From Escherichia phage AV124, in the sequence record OR352954: 64,000 nt of DNA; one strand, written 5' to 3'. Made by a program: the position numbers and the translations under genes. Positions within the stretch are counted from its first letter, which is position 1. Each line of letters opens with the position of its first letter. Of this stretch, positions 11,806 to 18,073 are shown piece by piece. Under the pieces are notes generated by a model, which was not told the DNA's origin, did no database searches, and saw only the letters and a program-made list of their open reading frames with translations.

Positions 11806-13877
11806 GAGGGATAATGGGAAATGGACCGGATTGGGCGGCGTATCGCAAAGGCGGCAATGAAAACCCAAGAGCAGGTTTTGGAAGTAATCGCGGAGGCAAG
11901 TTGAGTTATAGTAACAATCGAGTAGAAGAGACCCTGGAATCAGTGCTGTCTGGCACCCGCATCATGGCTGTTCCCGAAATGAGTCTCTCTCTTGAAGCAG
12001 CACAGTATTTTAAGATCCGTTCTGCGGTATCCCCGGCGGATGGTATCACCCCGGTAGCAACATACTTGCCATATTATGATAAGTATGGGAAACTGACAGG
12101 ATTCAAGAAACGTGACTGGACGCTACAAAAGGAGAAGACGGGACACTTTTCAACTGTTGGCGCTGTGAAGGCATCATCTCAGTTCTTCGGGCAGCATGAA
12201 GCCTCTATGGGTGTTGGTCGTAAACAGATCAATATCGTAGAAGGTGAAGGTGACGTATGCGCAGCATGGCAGGCAGCGTATGAGATGGTCAAGGCTATGT
12301 CTACCAGCCCAAAAGCCAGTAAAGGCGTTAAGGACTGGGCCGATAGCATCCTAAAAGGTATCCGTCATATCCAGAACGACGAAGACATTGGCGGTCTTCC
12401 GACACTACCTTATGTCGGATTAAACTGTGGTACTGCAAACGCTGTTGATACTTTCGCAAACAACGAAAAGTTCATTCGCAGTTATGAGAAGGTAGTCTTA
12501 GGTTTTGATAACGATGAAGCAACAGCGTTAGAAAAAGAAAAGAAAATAAAGAAAGGTAAAGAAGCAACCGACGATGTAGCCAGCTTCCTGCTGTCAGAAA
12601 ACATTTACGTTGTGCGATATCCCAACGAGCGTAATGACCCGGATGGCTTTAAAGACATTCGTGACATGTTTGATGCTGGTAAGATACGTGAACTTTACGC
12701 AATGTTCACCAAAGCAGACGATCGCTATGTTCCTGATAAATTGATCGGTCTTAAGGATATCACCATTGAAAACCTTCGTAAGAAGAAAAAAGATGGTGTT
12801 CCATTACCGGGTATGCCGGGGCTTTACAACCTTACCAGAGGCCCTCGTACTGGTGAGCTTTGGACATTGACCGGGCCGTCTGGTGGTGGTAAGTCTACAA
12901 TCTCTCGTAAGATTGAATACGCAATCATTGATTATCTTCGTGATATGTCAATTCCCCGCCTCGATGGCTGGACCGAGAGTGAGAAAGTAGCTATCATCCG
13001 GCTGGAAGAGGATGAAGAAGAGTCTGTAAACAGCTTGTATGCTGAAGAGCTGAAGGTGGACCCTAAGGCATTTGTTGCTGACCCGGAGCAGTTCTTAACC
13101 GAAGAGCAACACCTTGAAATTCACCAACGCTGGATTAGGGAAGATAAGATTAAGATCTTCGATCACTTTGGTTCTATCCCGACAGACCAGCTTATTCAGA
13201 AACTTAAGCAGATGGTGTTCCTTGATGGTTGTAAATGGATCATCCTCGATCACCTGTCGATGGTAATCTCTGGTCTTAAGTCCGACAACGAACGTCGAGA
13301 CCTTGATAACATCATGACCGAGCTGGCGGCTTTCTGTAAGAAGTACGATGTTTTCATCTTATCAATCAGTCACATGAAGCGTAAAGAACTTCAGCTTCCG
13401 AAAGATAAAGATGGGAATCTATTACCGTTCTGGTATCCGGTCCGTAAAGAAGACCTGCGCGGTTCTGCGGCCCTTGAACAACTCTCATGGGTGGTTCTGG
13501 GTGTTGAACCAGAAGAGCTTCCTGACCGCTCCCGTGGACGTGTACGTATCGTGGTGCTGAAGAACCGCCCACACAAAAAACTGGGTATCGCTGATACAAT
13601 GGTTATGGATGACAACGGGCAGTTCTCCGATGCTTCCGGCTGGGAATGGGAAGATGGGATGTTCAAGCTTAATGGTGAAGTTATGCTTCGTCCTCAGAGT
13701 CTGATCCATCAACTCTCTCTGGAAACTCCGGTTGGAAAGGTAAATGTTCCGGCACCTGAGTATAAGCCAACCATCGATCTTGATAGGACACCAGTCCCTA
13801 CTCTTGATCCTGACGATGATACGCCTTTCGCCCCGATAGGATTGCAATACGCAAAACATGCAATTTATGTAATTTAA
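11802..13877 (+). CDS. primase-helicase, T7 gp4-like (TOPRIM + DnaB-like helicase)
   Basis: TOPRIM 'NIVEGEGDVCAAW', 'VVLGFDNDEA'; helicase Walker A 'GPSGGGKST', 'IILDHLSM'. Confidence 0.8.
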   Translation: MRGIMGNGPDWAAYRKGGNENPRAGFGSNRGGKLSYSNNRVEETLESVLSGTRIMAVPEMSLSLEAAQYFKIRSAVSPADGITPVATYLPYYDKYGKLTGFKKRDWTLQKEKTGHFSTVGAVKASSQFFGQHEASMGVGRKQINIVEGEGDVCAAWQAAYEMVKAMSTSPKASKGVKDWADSILKGIRHIQNDEDIGGLPTLPYVGLNCGTANAVDTFANNEKFIRSYEKVVLGFDNDEATALEKEKKIKKGKEATDDVASFLLSENIYVVRYPNERNDPDGFKDIRDMFDAGKIRELYAMFTKADDRYVPDKLIGLKDITIENLRKKKKDGVPLPGMPGLYNLTRGPRTGELWTLTGPSGGGKSTISRKIEYAIIDYLRDMSIPRLDGWTESEKVAIIRLEEDEEESVNSLYAEELKVDPKAFVADPEQFLTEEQHLEIHQRWIREDKIKIFDHFGSIPTDQLIQKLKQMVFLDGCKWIILDHLSMVISGLKSDNERRDLDNIMTELAAFCKKYDVFILSISHMKRKELQLPKDKDGNLLPFWYPVRKEDLRGSAALEQLSWVVLGVEPEELPDRSRGRVRIVVLKNRPHKKLGIADTMVMDDNGQFSDASGWEWEDGMFKLNGEVMLRPQSLIHQLSLETPVGKVNVPAPEYKPTIDLDRTPVPTLDPDDDTPFAPIGLQYAKHAIYVI

Positions 13878-13933
13878 TACCAACTGAGAGGTGGGCGACG
13901 GTACAGTCTAGCCCACTTTGAATAGGAGGAATC

Positions 13934-16306
13934 ATTAAAGGTCTGTTTATACTGGATAACGAGGCCGATGGCCTGTTAGACGAAGTAACTAAGTACCATT
14001 GTACTTTGCTGAAAGAATTCGGAGTCAACAACTGGAACCTGTTTTTAGACCCCGCACACCCTGAATATGAAAGCGCTGTAGCCTTTGCCAGGAGCAAGAA
14101 GGATGCTAATCTTACAATTCGTTCATACGACGAGCTGGAAAGCTTCCTGAAGACTTGTAGAGCCATTGCGTGTCACAACCTGTTTGGTTATGACCTGCGC
14201 CTGTGGAAGAAGTTATCGGGCATTGAATATGATATGTTCAAAGACCCGAAGTGCATGGGGACGATTGGGGATACACAGGTAAATCTCTACGACACCCTCT
14301 CTATGAGCCGTGTGCTTTATCCTGACCGTCCATTACCTAACGGTTGCCCTGACTCTGTTCTTAACCCGGTAACCGGGAAGCGAGACCGTGTAGGTCCTCA
14401 TGGCCTGTTGGCCTGGGGCTACCGCGTAGCAAACAAGAAAGTTCAGATCGATGACTGGCGTAACCAACCCTTGTGGGAATACGTTAATCGTGTCTGGGAA
14501 GACGTTTTAATCAACGAGTTAGTATGGCAATCCCTGATCGATGAATCTACAGGTGCTCGCTGGCCTGATGACAAGCAGTTCATGTACAAAGATAAACCGG
14601 AAGGGATGCGGCAGATCAACTGGAAGAACGCGCTACGCCGCCGTATGTTGACTGATTACCTGATGATTGAGCAAGAAATTCAGGGTGTTCCATTCAATAA
14701 GCATGAAGCTGAAAAGCTGAGAGACCGTATTGATGTAATGATGAAAGAGATTGAGGAAGAAGTAGAACCTCAACTCCCGCTCAAAGAGATGACGAAGTCT
14801 CAACAGCCAAAATTCCCTGCTAATCCTTTTGATGGTGCAGGAAGAATTTCCCATCACGGGTGGAATTGGTTAGAATACAAGCTGGGATATCCAGTTAATC
14901 GTGAAGCGCTGGAATTCAAAGGTCCACCGAAGACGGCGTTTAAAGGTAACGGTGATGTAAGTGCAGCAGGGGAAAGATACTGTATCCAGAATGGTGTTGA
15001 AGACCCGGCAGCGATGCCAGACTTCATTAGAAGCCAGATAAAGAAAGAGAATACCCTTGTCCCATTGCCACCAGACCTAATGGAAAAGGCAATTGCCGAT
15101 CTTCGTGCTGGAAAGATGCCAGACCTGATGGTTCCGATGAAGATCTCGAACCAGGACGACATCAAGAAGTACCTGATCCGCGATGCGGGATGGAAACCAA
15201 CGCTCTGGCGTGTTAAAGATGTGACGAAAGACCAGTTCAAAAAGACCCGCGATGATGCGGAGGTTGATGGTCTGGTGCGTAAGTACATCGAAGAACTTGG
15301 AGAGTCCGAGTATAAATCTCTGATTCTTGAGCACTTAAATAATAGTGACGCAAAGTTCAATATCTCGGAAAACAAGTTCGACCATCGTCATGGTTCTGAT
15401 CGTGTTTACGAGGAGGTCTTCAAGAAGTTCCGACGCAAAGCTCGTCAACTGCCGACTTCACCACAGTTGAAGGATAACTTTGGCAAGCTGTGTCCTAACC
15501 TTGAAGTTATCGATGTTCACTTGGCTAAACAGATTGTTAAGTGGCTGTCATTACGTAACCGTCGTTCTGTTCTCGACCCTATTGACGAGGATAAAAACGA
15601 TACAGGGCTGTTGAATCATCCTCGCCTGGCGATTGATGGAAAACTTCCAGCTCGTTTCTCTGGTATCACTAACACCGGGCGTTGTAAGCACACCATTTGT
15701 GCAAACATGCCTAAGCCAGATCCTAAGGTGTTGTTGGGTAAAGAGATGCGTGGTCTCTGGGGTGTGACCGATGAATATTACCAGGTCGGTATCGATGGTT
15801 CTAACCTCGAAGGTATGATCGCGGCATGGGGTGCATATCAGTTCGATGGTGGTGAATACCTCCGTATCATGGAAAGTGGAGATGCCCACGCACGAAACGC
15901 CGAGGCATACACCAAAGCTTCTGGTACTCTGGTAACGCGTAACGGTGGTAAAGGGGTAACCTACGGCATCATGTATGGTGCTCAGGCAGCTAAGATTGCA
16001 GCAATGCTTCACATTTCCCTTGACAAGGCACAGGCGGTAATCGATGCTTTCTGGGATAGTAACTTTGGTTTGAAAGGTCGTAAGGAATGGCTTGAAAACT
16101 TCTGGGAAGCAACGGGTAAACGTTATATCCCTGGTCTCGATGGTCGTAAGATTTGGACCCGTTCTAAGCACTCTCTTCTGAATGCTTTCCAGCAAAACGG
16201 TGGTGCATCTCTATTCGATCTGGTTGGTATCCTGCTTCACTGGGAACTGATCAAACGTGGCTGGTATGATGATGACGTTCGTCGCCTGATTTACTACCAT
16301 AAATAA
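13934..16306 (+). CDS. DNA polymerase, family A, T7 gene 5-like; N-terminal segment (3'-5' exo + motifs A and B), ends just before motif C
   Basis: Exo I 'FILDNEADGLLDEVTKYHC' (cf. T7 'IVSDIEANALLESVTKFHC'), 'GPHGLLAWGYR', motif A 'GIDGSNLEG', motif B 'KGVTYGIMYGAQ'; no ATG/GTG/TTG between upstream TGA (13919) and Exo I, so start set at ATT 13934 after AGGAGG. Confidence 0.75.
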   Translation: MKGLFILDNEADGLLDEVTKYHCTLLKEFGVNNWNLFLDPAHPEYESAVAFARSKKDANLTIRSYDELESFLKTCRAIACHNLFGYDLRLWKKLSGIEYDMFKDPKCMGTIGDTQVNLYDTLSMSRVLYPDRPLPNGCPDSVLNPVTGKRDRVGPHGLLAWGYRVANKKVQIDDWRNQPLWEYVNRVWEDVLINELVWQSLIDESTGARWPDDKQFMYKDKPEGMRQINWKNALRRRMLTDYLMIEQEIQGVPFNKHEAEKLRDRIDVMMKEIEEEVEPQLPLKEMTKSQQPKFPANPFDGAGRISHHGWNWLEYKLGYPVNREALEFKGPPKTAFKGNGDVSAAGERYCIQNGVEDPAAMPDFIRSQIKKENTLVPLPPDLMEKAIADLRAGKMPDLMVPMKISNQDDIKKYLIRDAGWKPTLWRVKDVTKDQFKKTRDDAEVDGLVRKYIEELGESEYKSLILEHLNNSDAKFNISENKFDHRHGSDRVYEEVFKKFRRKARQLPTSPQLKDNFGKLCPNLEVIDVHLAKQIVKWLSLRNRRSVLDPIDEDKNDTGLLNHPRLAIDGKLPARFSGITNTGRCKHTICANMPKPDPKVLLGKEMRGLWGVTDEYYQVGIDGSNLEGMIAAWGAYQFDGGEYLRIMESGDAHARNAEAYTKASGTLVTRNGGKGVTYGIMYGAQAAKIAAMLHISLDKAQAVIDAFWDSNFGLKGRKEWLENFWEATGKRYIPGLDGRKIWTRSKHSLLNAFQQNGGASLFDLVGILLHWELIKRGWYDDDVRRLIYYHK

Positions 16307-17275
16307 CATTGTGGCTTTGTGAGGTAACTCACATCGAATAACTCCTTTAATTGCTGGGAGGCTAAGGTTGATATTCACTCGATAATAGAGTAAAATACAA
16401 CTATGTTAATCAGCAGCGAAGAGGATCAATGAAAAGTGTAAACTACCACGGATATGTGGTTTACGAAGACGGAACCATTATCGGAAGGCGCGGGAAACCG
16501 ATGCAAAAGGTAGATAATGGGAGGGGCTACCTAATTGTAAGTCTCTACCTTAATAAAAGAACAACGACAAAAGCTGTGCATGTTTTAGTGGCTGAGTGTT
16601 TCGTTCCCAACCCGGATAACCTCCCAGAGGTTGACCACAAGGATGGTGATAAGACCAACAACCACTACACCAACCTCCGCTGGGTAACAAGAGGTAAGAA
16701 CATAGAACATTGCTACACGTTGGAAGGTAGAAGTGCAACAGGTATTGCCAATGCAAACAGTAAGTTGTCAGAGGGAGAAGTGGAGAAAATCTGCTACCTC
16801 TTGCAGGAAGGCTTTAGTCAAGCTGCCATCCGAGACATGGGCTACCCATACGGAACAGTTAGGGCCATCAAGCAGAGACGACAATGGCTGCATATATCAT
16901 CTTCGTATCATTGGTCTTAACGTTCAGAGGCCAGCCGAAAGGCGTAGACGAGCGAGTGCCGTCGAAATGGGGAGCATCCTGAAAAGGATGGTGATATGGT
17001 CCGATCCTACGTGAAAACGTATGGCAACACGTAATGGTGTGGGCGAGATTAACGACCTCGCTAAACTTTTGGATGAATACCAGCTCCAGGTTCCTAAGAA
17101 ATACCTGAAGAAGTGGGAGTTCGACACCCTGGAAGAGGCAACAGCTTTCGTCAAAGAATGGGAAGCAAAAGGCCGGGTATTTGACGGACATGAATGGAGA
17201 AAGGCCGTCAAAGATGACAACGGTGATAAAGTCAAGGATGCGGAAGGCAATACAGTCTACGAAGGTATTTTCGGG
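16301..17275 (+). mobile_element. insertion interrupting the DNA polymerase gene; candidate group I intron carrying an HNH endonuclease ORF (alternative: gene-splitting homing cassette)
   Basis: Polymerase frame stops at 16304-16306 where motif C is expected; conserved C-terminus resumes downstream; possible P1 pairing CCAU(16297-16300)/GUGG(16311-16314); in-frame G-terminated 3' site at 17275. Confidence 0.3.
16429..16920 (+). CDS. HNH homing endonuclease
   Basis: 'VHVLVAECFV...VDHKDGDKTNNHYTNLRWVTRGKN' HNH_3-type motif; C-terminal HTH-like segment. Confidence 0.75.
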   Translation: MKSVNYHGYVVYEDGTIIGRRGKPMQKVDNGRGYLIVSLYLNKRTTTKAVHVLVAECFVPNPDNLPEVDHKDGDKTNNHYTNLRWVTRGKNIEHCYTLEGRSATGIANANSKLSEGEVEKICYLLQEGFSQAAIRDMGYPYGTVRAIKQRRQWLHISSSYHWS

Positions 17276-17419
17276 GACGATGGTAAAATCCACATCCAGT
17301 ATTGCCCTGTTGGTGAAATGGTCGTAAGATGTGTAGAGAAGGCCGCTCGTATCATGGGCAGTCCTGTACATATCACAGGGGCATATCTTACGGGCGCCAA
17401 TTGGGCGCAATGTCATTGA
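17021..17419 (+). CDS. DNA polymerase C-terminal segment (motif C region to C-terminal His)
   Basis: 'IQYCPVGEMVVRCVEKAARIM...ANWAQCH*' matches T7 DNAP C-terminus '...IQVGC..EEIAQVV...NWAICH*'; first ~85 codons lack polymerase similarity. Confidence 0.6.
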   Translation: MATRNGVGEINDLAKLLDEYQLQVPKKYLKKWEFDTLEEATAFVKEWEAKGRVFDGHEWRKAVKDDNGDKVKDAEGNTVYEGIFGDDGKIHIQYCPVGEMVVRCVEKAARIMGSPVHITGAYLTGANWAQCH

Positions 17420-17437
17420 TATATAAGGATATTTTAT

Positions 17438-18073
17438 ATGGAATTATGGAAAGACATCCCCTCTACGGAGGGGAGATACCAAGTAAGTAATTATGGAAGA
17501 ATAAAAAGGCAACGGTATTCTCGCATAAACAGCAATCAAGCAGCAAGTTGGGAGCAAGTATATGAAACAAAGATATTAAAGCCTTCAAAGGACACACACG
17601 GTTACCTACAAGCTTGTTACCTTGTGGAAGGAGAGAGGACTATAGCCCTGGTCCATAGGCTTGTTGCAGAAGCCTTCCTTGCACCGCCAAGTCAAGAGTT
17701 GATAGATGAATGTATGAAGGCTGGTCACAAAGTGGTTCTTGTCAACCACAAGGATGGAAACCCACTTAACAACCATGTTGACAACCTTGAGTGGTGTACT
17801 CCTTCTTACAACAATGAGTATAGTCCCCAAGATTATTCAAATAGGTCTGGGGATAACTGTAAACATGCGGTTCTTAAAGAATCTGATGTTGACAAAATAC
17901 TGGAACTACGTGGTAAAATGAGTCAGCAGGCCATCGCGGATATGTTCGATGTGAAACAGATCACTATCAGCAACATTTTCACCGGAAGGTCTTGGTCTTC
18001 TTATACCGGAATACCTCGCAAAGAGCGTAACAAAGGAAAACGTGCAGCTAAGACCAAACTGTTATCACAATAG
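17438..18073 (+). CDS. HNH homing endonuclease (NUMOD4-like N-terminus)
   Basis: 'WKDIP..EGRYQVSNYGRIK' then 'VHRLVAEAFL...VNHKDGNPLNNHVDNLEW'. Confidence 0.7.
   Translation: MELWKDIPSTEGRYQVSNYGRIKRQRYSRINSNQAASWEQVYETKILKPSKDTHGYLQACYLVEGERTIALVHRLVAEAFLAPPSQELIDECMKAGHKVVLVNHKDGNPLNNHVDNLEWCTPSYNNEYSPQDYSNRSGDNCKHAVLKESDVDKILELRGKMSQQAIADMFDVKQITISNIFTGRSWSSYTGIPRKERNKGKRAAKTKLLSQ

Follow-up and report, generated by a model that had tools for sequence, protein, structure and literature searches.

In Escherichia phage AV124 (sequence record OR352954) the gene for a T7-like, family A DNA polymerase has no canonical start codon where its conserved N-terminus begins, and its translation probably starts at an AUU codon. 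The stretch analysed here, called the window throughout, is 64,000 nucleotides long, and all positions are those of the window unless another locus is named. From the comparison of this region with its relatives we put at about 85% the probability that translation of the polymerase starts at AUU 13934-13936, 4 nt after a strong Shine-Dalgarno sequence. A conserved RNA hairpin lies immediately upstream. An earlier sequence-only reading of the same region had left two options for the missing start, namely a rare codon such as AUU or an error in the sequence. The comparison with orthologues supports the former and narrows it to the ATT at 13934.

The elements from which that reading had argued, i.e. 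the in-frame TGA at 13919-13921, the AGGAGG at 13924-13929 and the lack of any ATG, GTG or TTG before TTG 14006, were re-read and their coordinates are correct. TTG 14006 is the first canonical in-frame start, and the open reading frame (ORF) is listed from it (14006..16306). Because the TGA closes the frame, no start is possible 5' of it. The codons that follow the TGA are ATA GGA GGA ATC ATT AAA GGT CTG TTT ATA CTG GAT AAC GAG, with ATA at 13922, ATC at 13931, ATT at 13934, CTG at 13943, ATA at 13949, CTG at 13952, GAT at 13955 and GAG at 13961. The three candidate starts previously named, ATC 13931, ATT 13934 and CTG 13943, are thus present, but they are not the only ones, since ATA 13922, ATA 13949 and CTG 13952 are found as well. 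In the same way, exonuclease motif I (Exo I) had been placed about 7 codons past the TGA; this is right for the conserved beta-strand LFILDNE, which starts about 8 codons past it, but not for the catalytic Asp, which is the 12th codon. ATC 13931, just 1 nt from the Shine-Dalgarno sequence, and ATA 13922, which overlaps it, were rejected as starts. The chance that about 11 codons contain no canonical start is approximately 0.57, so that this absence is not improbable when taken alone. The window has no excess of AGGAGG (20 observed against 27.5 expected); as it is sited 4 nt before the conserved N-terminus and kept in all relatives, its placement is meaningful and not a by-product of composition.

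The evidence that carries the assignment comes from related loci, some 20 or more of which (labelled L0nn) were gathered from GenBank phages and from IMG/VR. In every collected locus the N-terminus has the form (start)-K/R-G-L-F/Y-I-x-D-x-E, with the start codon aligned exactly with ATT 13934. The aligned codon is always one that is able to start translation, i.e. ATG, TTG, ATT or ATA (Table 1), though as an internal codon it would read as Met, Leu or Ile, and opposite the ATT more than 12 diverse relatives have ATG or TTG. Homology between relatives ends at this codon, most relatives have a stop a few codons upstream, and no amino-acid conservation is found upstream of the TGA position. The position of the N-terminus is shown by these alignments. 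Between the Shine-Dalgarno sequence and the start there are 4 nt here, against 3-5 nt in most closer relatives and about 8-10 nt in the rV5-like phages and ICP1; the spacer AATC is common to the ATT and ATA clades, and the ATG relatives that have AGGAGG possess a 3-nt spacer. Identity between the ATT and ATA alleles amounts to about 83% in this region. Since the ATT has persisted through substantial divergence, it should be considered functional and not a defect, and we infer that a non-AUG start has long been stably kept at this site and is not a recent lesion. A pattern scan of IMG/VR for further start-codon variants returned 7 loci and no new codon type.

Table 1. Position and basis of the features discussed (positions in the window unless a locus is named)
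Feature	Position	Strand	Basis or occurrence
RNA hairpin in the polymerase 5' untranslated region	13889..13918	+	covariation, minimum free energy, RNAalifold, covariance model
In-frame TGA	13919..13921	+	closes polymerase frame 5'; no ATG, GTG or TTG in frame upstream
Shine-Dalgarno AGGAGG	13924..13929	+	kept in relatives as AGGAGG, CGGAGG, AAGGAG or GAGGGAG
Proposed initiation codon ATT	13934..13936	+	4 nt after AGGAGG; aligned with ATG, TTG or ATA in relatives
DNA polymerase exon 1 (789 codons)	13934..16300	+	colinearity with the KpS8 polymerase, which is uninterrupted, extends to 16300; PF00476
Exo I codons GAT AAC GAG (D8-N-E10, numbered from 13934)	13955..13963	+	invariant D8 and E10; T7 alignment
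TTG, database start; most likely internal Leu (L25)	14006..14008	+	no upstream Shine-Dalgarno; constrained codons 5' of the TTG
Group I intron, 771 bp, with HNH ORF 16429-16920 (HNH_3)	16301..17071	+	insertion relative to KpS8; Rfam RF00028
DNA polymerase exon 2 (115 codons and stop)	17072..17419	+	comparison with KpS8
HNH-AP2 ORF at polymerase start	L005 1684-2243 (NDO71); also L010, L017, L018
ATG in relatives	13934 equivalent		PVP-SE1, 4MG, GAP31, GE_vB_MG, Av-05, L022, L023, A7_1, ICP1, rV5-like isim and rV5_ev146
ATG overlapping the stop of an upstream HNH gene	13934 equivalent		Mydo, NDO71
TTG in relatives	13934 equivalent		L020, L021, L024, Vibrio phage F100
ATT	13934 and equivalent		window, 13 Klebsiella phages, Ro1, two metagenomic contigs
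ATA in relatives	13934 equivalent		SSE121, SalP219, FENT2, NINP13076, LNA4 (Salmonella/Enterobacter clade)

We also evaluated whether the segment between the ATT and the annotated TTG behaves as coding sequence. Over the 23 codons of 13937-14005, synonymous differences greatly exceed non-synonymous ones in the comparison with 11 relatives, as for instance with Mydo (12 against 2), SalP219 (9 against 0) and L022 (13 against 2). The coding constraint is shown by these counts, on which the segment is under strong purifying selection. In an alignment of 13 diverse homologues, down to 46% identity, D8, E10, D87 and D190 are invariant, and K2 and G3 are also conserved as coding. When the profile of the alignment was compared with the PDB it matched T7 DNA polymerase (E 5e-7), with D8 and E10 opposite T7 D5 and E7 and D87 opposite T7 D65. 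The AlphaFold2 model of residues 1-230 has a predicted local distance difference test score of 75; over residues 1-120 the score is above 90, except in three 10-residue blocks at 81-86. In a Foldseek search the top 27 PDB matches of the model were all T7 polymerase chains; an exonuclease fold is therefore found for the N-terminal domain, with a template modelling score of about 0.4 and hence only a moderate match. Among these T7 polymerase matches, the entries 6n7w and 6n9u are described as the D5A/E7A variant. The D5A/E7A variant of T7 polymerase is exonuclease-deficient. As the sequence-only reading had anticipated, a start at TTG 14006 would remove both the Asp and the Glu of Exo I, and of the four invariant carboxylates at the proofreading site a protein begun there would lack two.

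How initiation might proceed can be proposed from these elements. The AGGAGG would position the ribosome on AUU 13934, 4 nt downstream, and the initiator tRNA would decode this codon as formylmethionine, giving the product M-K-G-L-F-I-L-D-N-E..., of 904 residues once the intron at 16301-17071 is removed. The ATT, and the ATA of the sister clade, are third-position derivatives of the ATG found at the same site in other Vequintavirinae. AUU is a proven start in E. coli, in infC and pcnB (bioRxiv 10.1101/063800; PMC5499595). Its efficiency is low: AUA, AUC, AUU and CUG gave about 1-2% of AUG initiation in a systematic reporter study (bioRxiv 10.1101/063800), and AUA, AUU and AUC gave 5-7.5% of AUG in an older phage hydrolase construct (PMC5499595). 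Non-AUG starts are also particularly sensitive to initiation factor 3 (IF3), to guanosine tetraphosphate (ppGpp) and to the nutrient state (PMC5499595). Weaker initiation, sensitive to IF3 and to growth state, would then be expected from the AUU, and the level of the polymerase may be lower or dependent on the growth state. A Shine-Dalgarno sequence at functional spacing, together with a first canonical start that lies only past D8 and E10, points to probable initiation of ribosomes on this AUU.

Some observations weigh against this assignment. It rests on comparative genomics, and the weakness of AUU in reporter assays seems odd for an essential replicase. CUG 13943, AUA 13949 and CUG 13952 would also retain Exo I and are possible minor starts. 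In the ATA clade, most of the sequenced members have a TTG three codons downstream, and genomes of the SalP219 type have an in-frame GTG inside the hairpin; for these reasons the start of that clade is less certain than the one of the window. It should be noted that AUU initiation itself is already known, and the polymerase would be a new and unusually well-supported example of it. Our literature search, the coverage of which was incomplete, found no earlier report of an AUU start of the polymerase or of the hairpin.

Competing starts and public annotations

The nearest competitor of AUU 13934 is another near-cognate codon, chiefly CUG 13943 or else AUA 13949 or CUG 13952, from which a slightly shorter protein would be made with Exo I kept. 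CUG initiates at about the level of AUU in reporters (bioRxiv 10.1101/063800), the codon at 13943 is a TTG annotated as the start in SSE121, SalP219 and PVP-SE1, and our profile alignment sets Met1 of T7 polymerase opposite it. However the same codon varies synonymously among CTG, TTG, CTT and TTA, as an internal Leu would, it lies 13 nt from AGGAGG against the 3-5 nt that separate the 13934 equivalent in most closer relatives, and the upstream K2 and G3 are conserved as coding; we consider this start improbable. Even less probable is that the database start is right and that the polymerase begins at TTG 14006, without the Exo I Asp and Glu and without proofreading. That an annotated TTG start exists, as the sequence-only reading had said, is true of the public records: the equivalent of TTG 14006, the first canonical in-frame start, is used in the RefSeq entries of KpS8, BIS47, KB57 and Ro1, and a start later still is used in DP. 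But no Shine-Dalgarno-like sequence is present in the 20 nt upstream of TTG 14006, the 23 constrained codons with the invariant D8 and E10 lie before it, and its position is CTG, CTT, ATC or TTG in relatives, i.e. it is not kept as a start; moreover the orthologues with ATG or TTG at 13934 clearly include the segment 13937-14005.

Two explanations remain, and we regard both as scarcely credible. One is that a sequencing or assembly error destroyed a canonical ATG. Errors of this kind do occur, an example being the extra base in the rV5 record DQ832317 relative to isim and rV5_ev146. Here, by contrast, the same sequence ...AGGAGGAATCATTAAAGGTCTG... is found in at least 13 independently sequenced Klebsiella phages, in Raoultella phage Ro1 and in two metagenomic contigs, all of them with the ATT, and in a diverged clade the same context surrounds an ATA. 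With the 77 nt of 13884-13960 as query, 76 of 77 positions are identical in 13 different phages, and the sole difference in the sequences inspected is a C/T at 13917. The error option of the sequence-only reading is accordingly abandoned. The other explanation is recoding, in which the N-terminus would come from an upstream ORF by readthrough of the TGA, by frameshifting or through an unrecognised upstream exon. The gene does have an intron elsewhere and the TGA is directly upstream, but translation of all three frames revealed no start and no conserved coding sequence upstream, and no intron-like Rfam hit lies near 13900. Unrelated insertions are found upstream in KB57, Ro1, SalP219 and FENT2, with hairpin, Shine-Dalgarno sequence and start staying fixed, and the N-terminus is already as short as the one of T7 polymerase, where Exo I is at residues 5-7. 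Two further devices were considered and rejected: a mini-ORF from TTG 13918 to TAA 13936-38, overlapping the ATT, as a coupling device (this ORF is without a Shine-Dalgarno sequence, falls within the hairpin stem and ends at a stop that the ATA clade has not kept), and an unusual initiator tRNA encoded by the phage (the window has no tRNA genes).

Initiation at AUU 13934 thus being preferred, the TTG 14006 start of the databases is a systematic annotation error, an artefact of gene callers that do not allow ATT. Over 13884-13960, 12 of the 13 near-identical phages have no annotated feature; for the remaining one, K45PH128C2, the only feature listed there is a 'virion structural protein', with no polymerase. 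The records of KpS8, BIS47, KB57, DP and Ro1 would then miss at least the first 24 residues, including two catalytic residues of proofreading, and anyone who uses such truncated records for structural work, phylogeny or engineering of therapeutic Klebsiella phages could be misled. On the biological side, the gene adds a comparatively well-supported natural AUU start (and probably also an AUA start) in an essential phage gene, and, as ATG, TTG, ATT and ATA all occur in this one gene across relatives, it is a natural series well suited to comparing the strength of start codons.

Other irregularities were found in the records of relatives. The rV5 record DQ832317 (L026, about 591-620) reads TGGTCTCTTCGAT, against TGGTCGTTCGAT in isim and rV5_ev146, and because of the extra base the N-terminus of the polymerase is split between 'ORF 229' and 'ORF 228', the latter truncated. 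The phage had been a candidate for a second start-less polymerase, with its ATG out of frame; it was set aside, the extra base relative to isim and rV5_ev146 being a probable sequencing error in the record. The RefSeq entry of PVP-SE1 (L029 601-612) is annotated from a TTG at codon 4 and not from the available ATG, and for NINP13076 (L041 162) the annotated start is a GTG within the stem of the hairpin. In the RefSeq entry of BIS47 (L003 6310-6700) a gene downstream of the polymerase is labelled 'DNA-directed RNA polymerase'. To our knowledge, an RNA polymerase is not expected in Vequintavirinae.

A conserved hairpin before the Shine-Dalgarno sequence

The hairpin reported in Table 1 has the sequence GAGGUGGGC-GAC (GGUACA) GUC-UA-GCCCACUUU, with the loop in parentheses. 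It is composed of 11 bp, i.e. 8 outer and 3 inner pairs, with a 2-nt bulge (TA) on the 3' side and the hexaloop GGUACA, and its base is 5 nt upstream of AGGAGG. The loop has the consensus RRUAYA, and in the bulge the A is nearly invariant. In the 11 distinct sequences compared, among them rV5, 98.3% of the cells are paired and double compensatory changes are seen in 9 of the 11 pairs; not one of 500 shuffles, nor any slid register, approached the observed pairing. The same helix was predicted by RNAalifold from an independent alignment, and in this consensus fold the Shine-Dalgarno sequence is unpaired. Six cells are G·U pairs, which would be A·C mismatches if the element were on the other strand, and an RNA element of the sense strand is therefore favoured. 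A covariance model finds one hairpin in the 64-kb window, at 52 bits (the next best scores 13.7 bits), and one per related locus, always 4-5 nt before the Shine-Dalgarno sequence of the polymerase. The hairpin stays with the polymerase despite the unrelated genes inserted upstream of it in KB57, Ro1, SalP219 and FENT2. Conservation of both Shine-Dalgarno sequence and hairpin is thus shown across the aligned loci. The thermodynamic z-score of the hairpin is unremarkable (-1.84), and the case for it is a comparative one. The search of Rfam 15 gave no match near 13880-13940, even with E up to 1.

At 13917 the window alone, among the related genomes inspected, has a C-to-T change, by which one G-C pair of the hairpin becomes G·U and the structure is kept.

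More familiar identities of the hairpin were evaluated and rejected. It is not an intrinsic (rho-independent) terminator, since it is followed by GAAUAGGAGG, with no U run, and no terminator-like site was called at 13880-13930. It is not a repeated promoter or terminator motif either, being present in single copy in the 64 kb and in every locus, with no sigma-70-like promoter nearby. An extension of the hairpin, in which a conserved upstream CC(A) would pair with the GG of the Shine-Dalgarno sequence, is present in the minimum free energy fold of the single sequence and is unsupported by RNAalifold.

We regard the hairpin as a candidate cis-regulatory RNA specific to the polymerase, and it is more novel than the start codon. 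Covarying in the 5' untranslated region across several genera of Vequintavirinae, it may be an element through which translation of a T7-like polymerase is controlled. By analogy with T4 gp43 it might be suggested, tentatively, that a translational operator is formed jointly by hairpin, Shine-Dalgarno sequence and start codon and is bound by a protein, possibly the polymerase itself, in which case the start would be free to weaken from AUG to UUG, AUU or AUA. A role of the hairpin in mRNA processing or stability is an equally open alternative. If the operator were true, it would represent a new class of cis-regulatory RNA, absent from Rfam and convergent with the one of the T4 family B polymerase.

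Genomic setting, intron and endonuclease genes

Around the polymerase the window is 97-98% identical to the Klebsiella phages DP, KpS8, BIS47, KB57 and others, and by its sequence the phage is a Klebsiella-type Mydovirus of the Vequintavirinae. The ORF of a gp4-like primase/helicase (DnaB_C) ends at 13877 and the polymerase gene follows. The polymerase belongs to family A and is T7-like: PF00476 (DNA_pol_A) is matched at 34.6 bits, with a cutoff of 34.3, and phmmer against T7 polymerase gives E 9e-17. Once spliced, it has 904 residues and agrees with the KpS8 polymerase, read from the KpS8 ATT, at 896 of 905 compared positions.

The group I intron interrupts polymerase motif C, between YYH and DEY. 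The last nucleotide is T in the 5' exon and G in the intron, and Rfam RF00028 is matched over 16291-17023 at 39.3 bits (E 1e-7), which is below the gathering score. Directly after the polymerase stop there is a free-standing endonuclease gene at 17438-18073, with NUMOD4 and HNH_3 domains (and HTH). An HNH endonuclease is annotated at the same position after the polymerase of KpS8, and homology between the window and KpS8 resumes only at 18070.

The short gap at 13878-13883, between the stop of the primase/helicase and the conserved CCAACUGAG-hairpin block, is an insertion hotspot together with the equivalent site in L004, L006, L007 and L008. KB57 has an inserted ORF of 155 residues here, Ro1 an HNH gene, and SalP219 and FENT2 have small ORFs.

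A different insertion is found at the start of the polymerase in the NDO71, KNP2, Mydo and K54 phages. The ATG of an HNH-AP2 ORF is here 4 nt after AGGAGG, where the ATT sits in the window, with the hairpin intact, and the ATG of the polymerase overlaps the stop of the HNH gene (gATGAgaggt). The polymerase codons after the HNH insert differ from the allele without HNH almost solely at synonymous sites, a synonymous divergence such as would be expected if the target of the HNH endonuclease lay there.

Comparison with known systems

One of the closest known systems is gene 5 of T7. Its product, likewise a polymerase of family A, has a DEDD exonuclease at the N-terminus with Exo I within the first 10 residues and is the best match by both sequence and fold; a gp4-like primase/helicase gene precedes gene 5 as well. 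The two differ in that identity in the exonuclease domain is about 18% and the protein predicted here has 904 residues against 704 in T7; moreover T7 uses AUG, whereas here a group I intron is present in the gene and a conserved hairpin before it. Concerning the start codon, infC (encoding IF3) and pcnB of E. coli likewise have AUU after a Shine-Dalgarno sequence where related genes have AUG, GUG or UUG, and the codon is phylogenetically conserved. Unlike those genes, however, the present one is a phage replicase with no evident logic of IF3 feedback and with a sister clade that has AUA, and its start is predicted from sequence.

For the HNH genes a comparison is possible with the homing endonucleases, both free-standing and intron-borne, of other Vequintavirinae polymerase genes, for instance in Pectobacterium phage CB7, a related phage in which spliced HNH introns have been demonstrated by reverse transcription PCR (PMC7344957). 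Unlike the CB7-type endonucleases, the HNH ORF of NDO71, KNP2 and Mydo lies exactly at the start of the polymerase, where it takes over the hairpin and the Shine-Dalgarno sequence.

The hairpin, finally, resembles the operator of gene 43 in T4 and RB69, where gp43 represses its own translation through a hairpin and the ribosome binding site; in both cases a conserved hairpin with a conserved loop adjoins the ribosome binding site of the polymerase gene (PMC3014915). The polymerase of those phages belongs to family B, whereas here it belongs to family A, the loop is -UAAC- there and RRUAYA here, and the stems are unrelated. We evaluated whether the two elements are kin in sequence and found that they are not, so that the likeness with the T4/RB69 operator is one of analogy.

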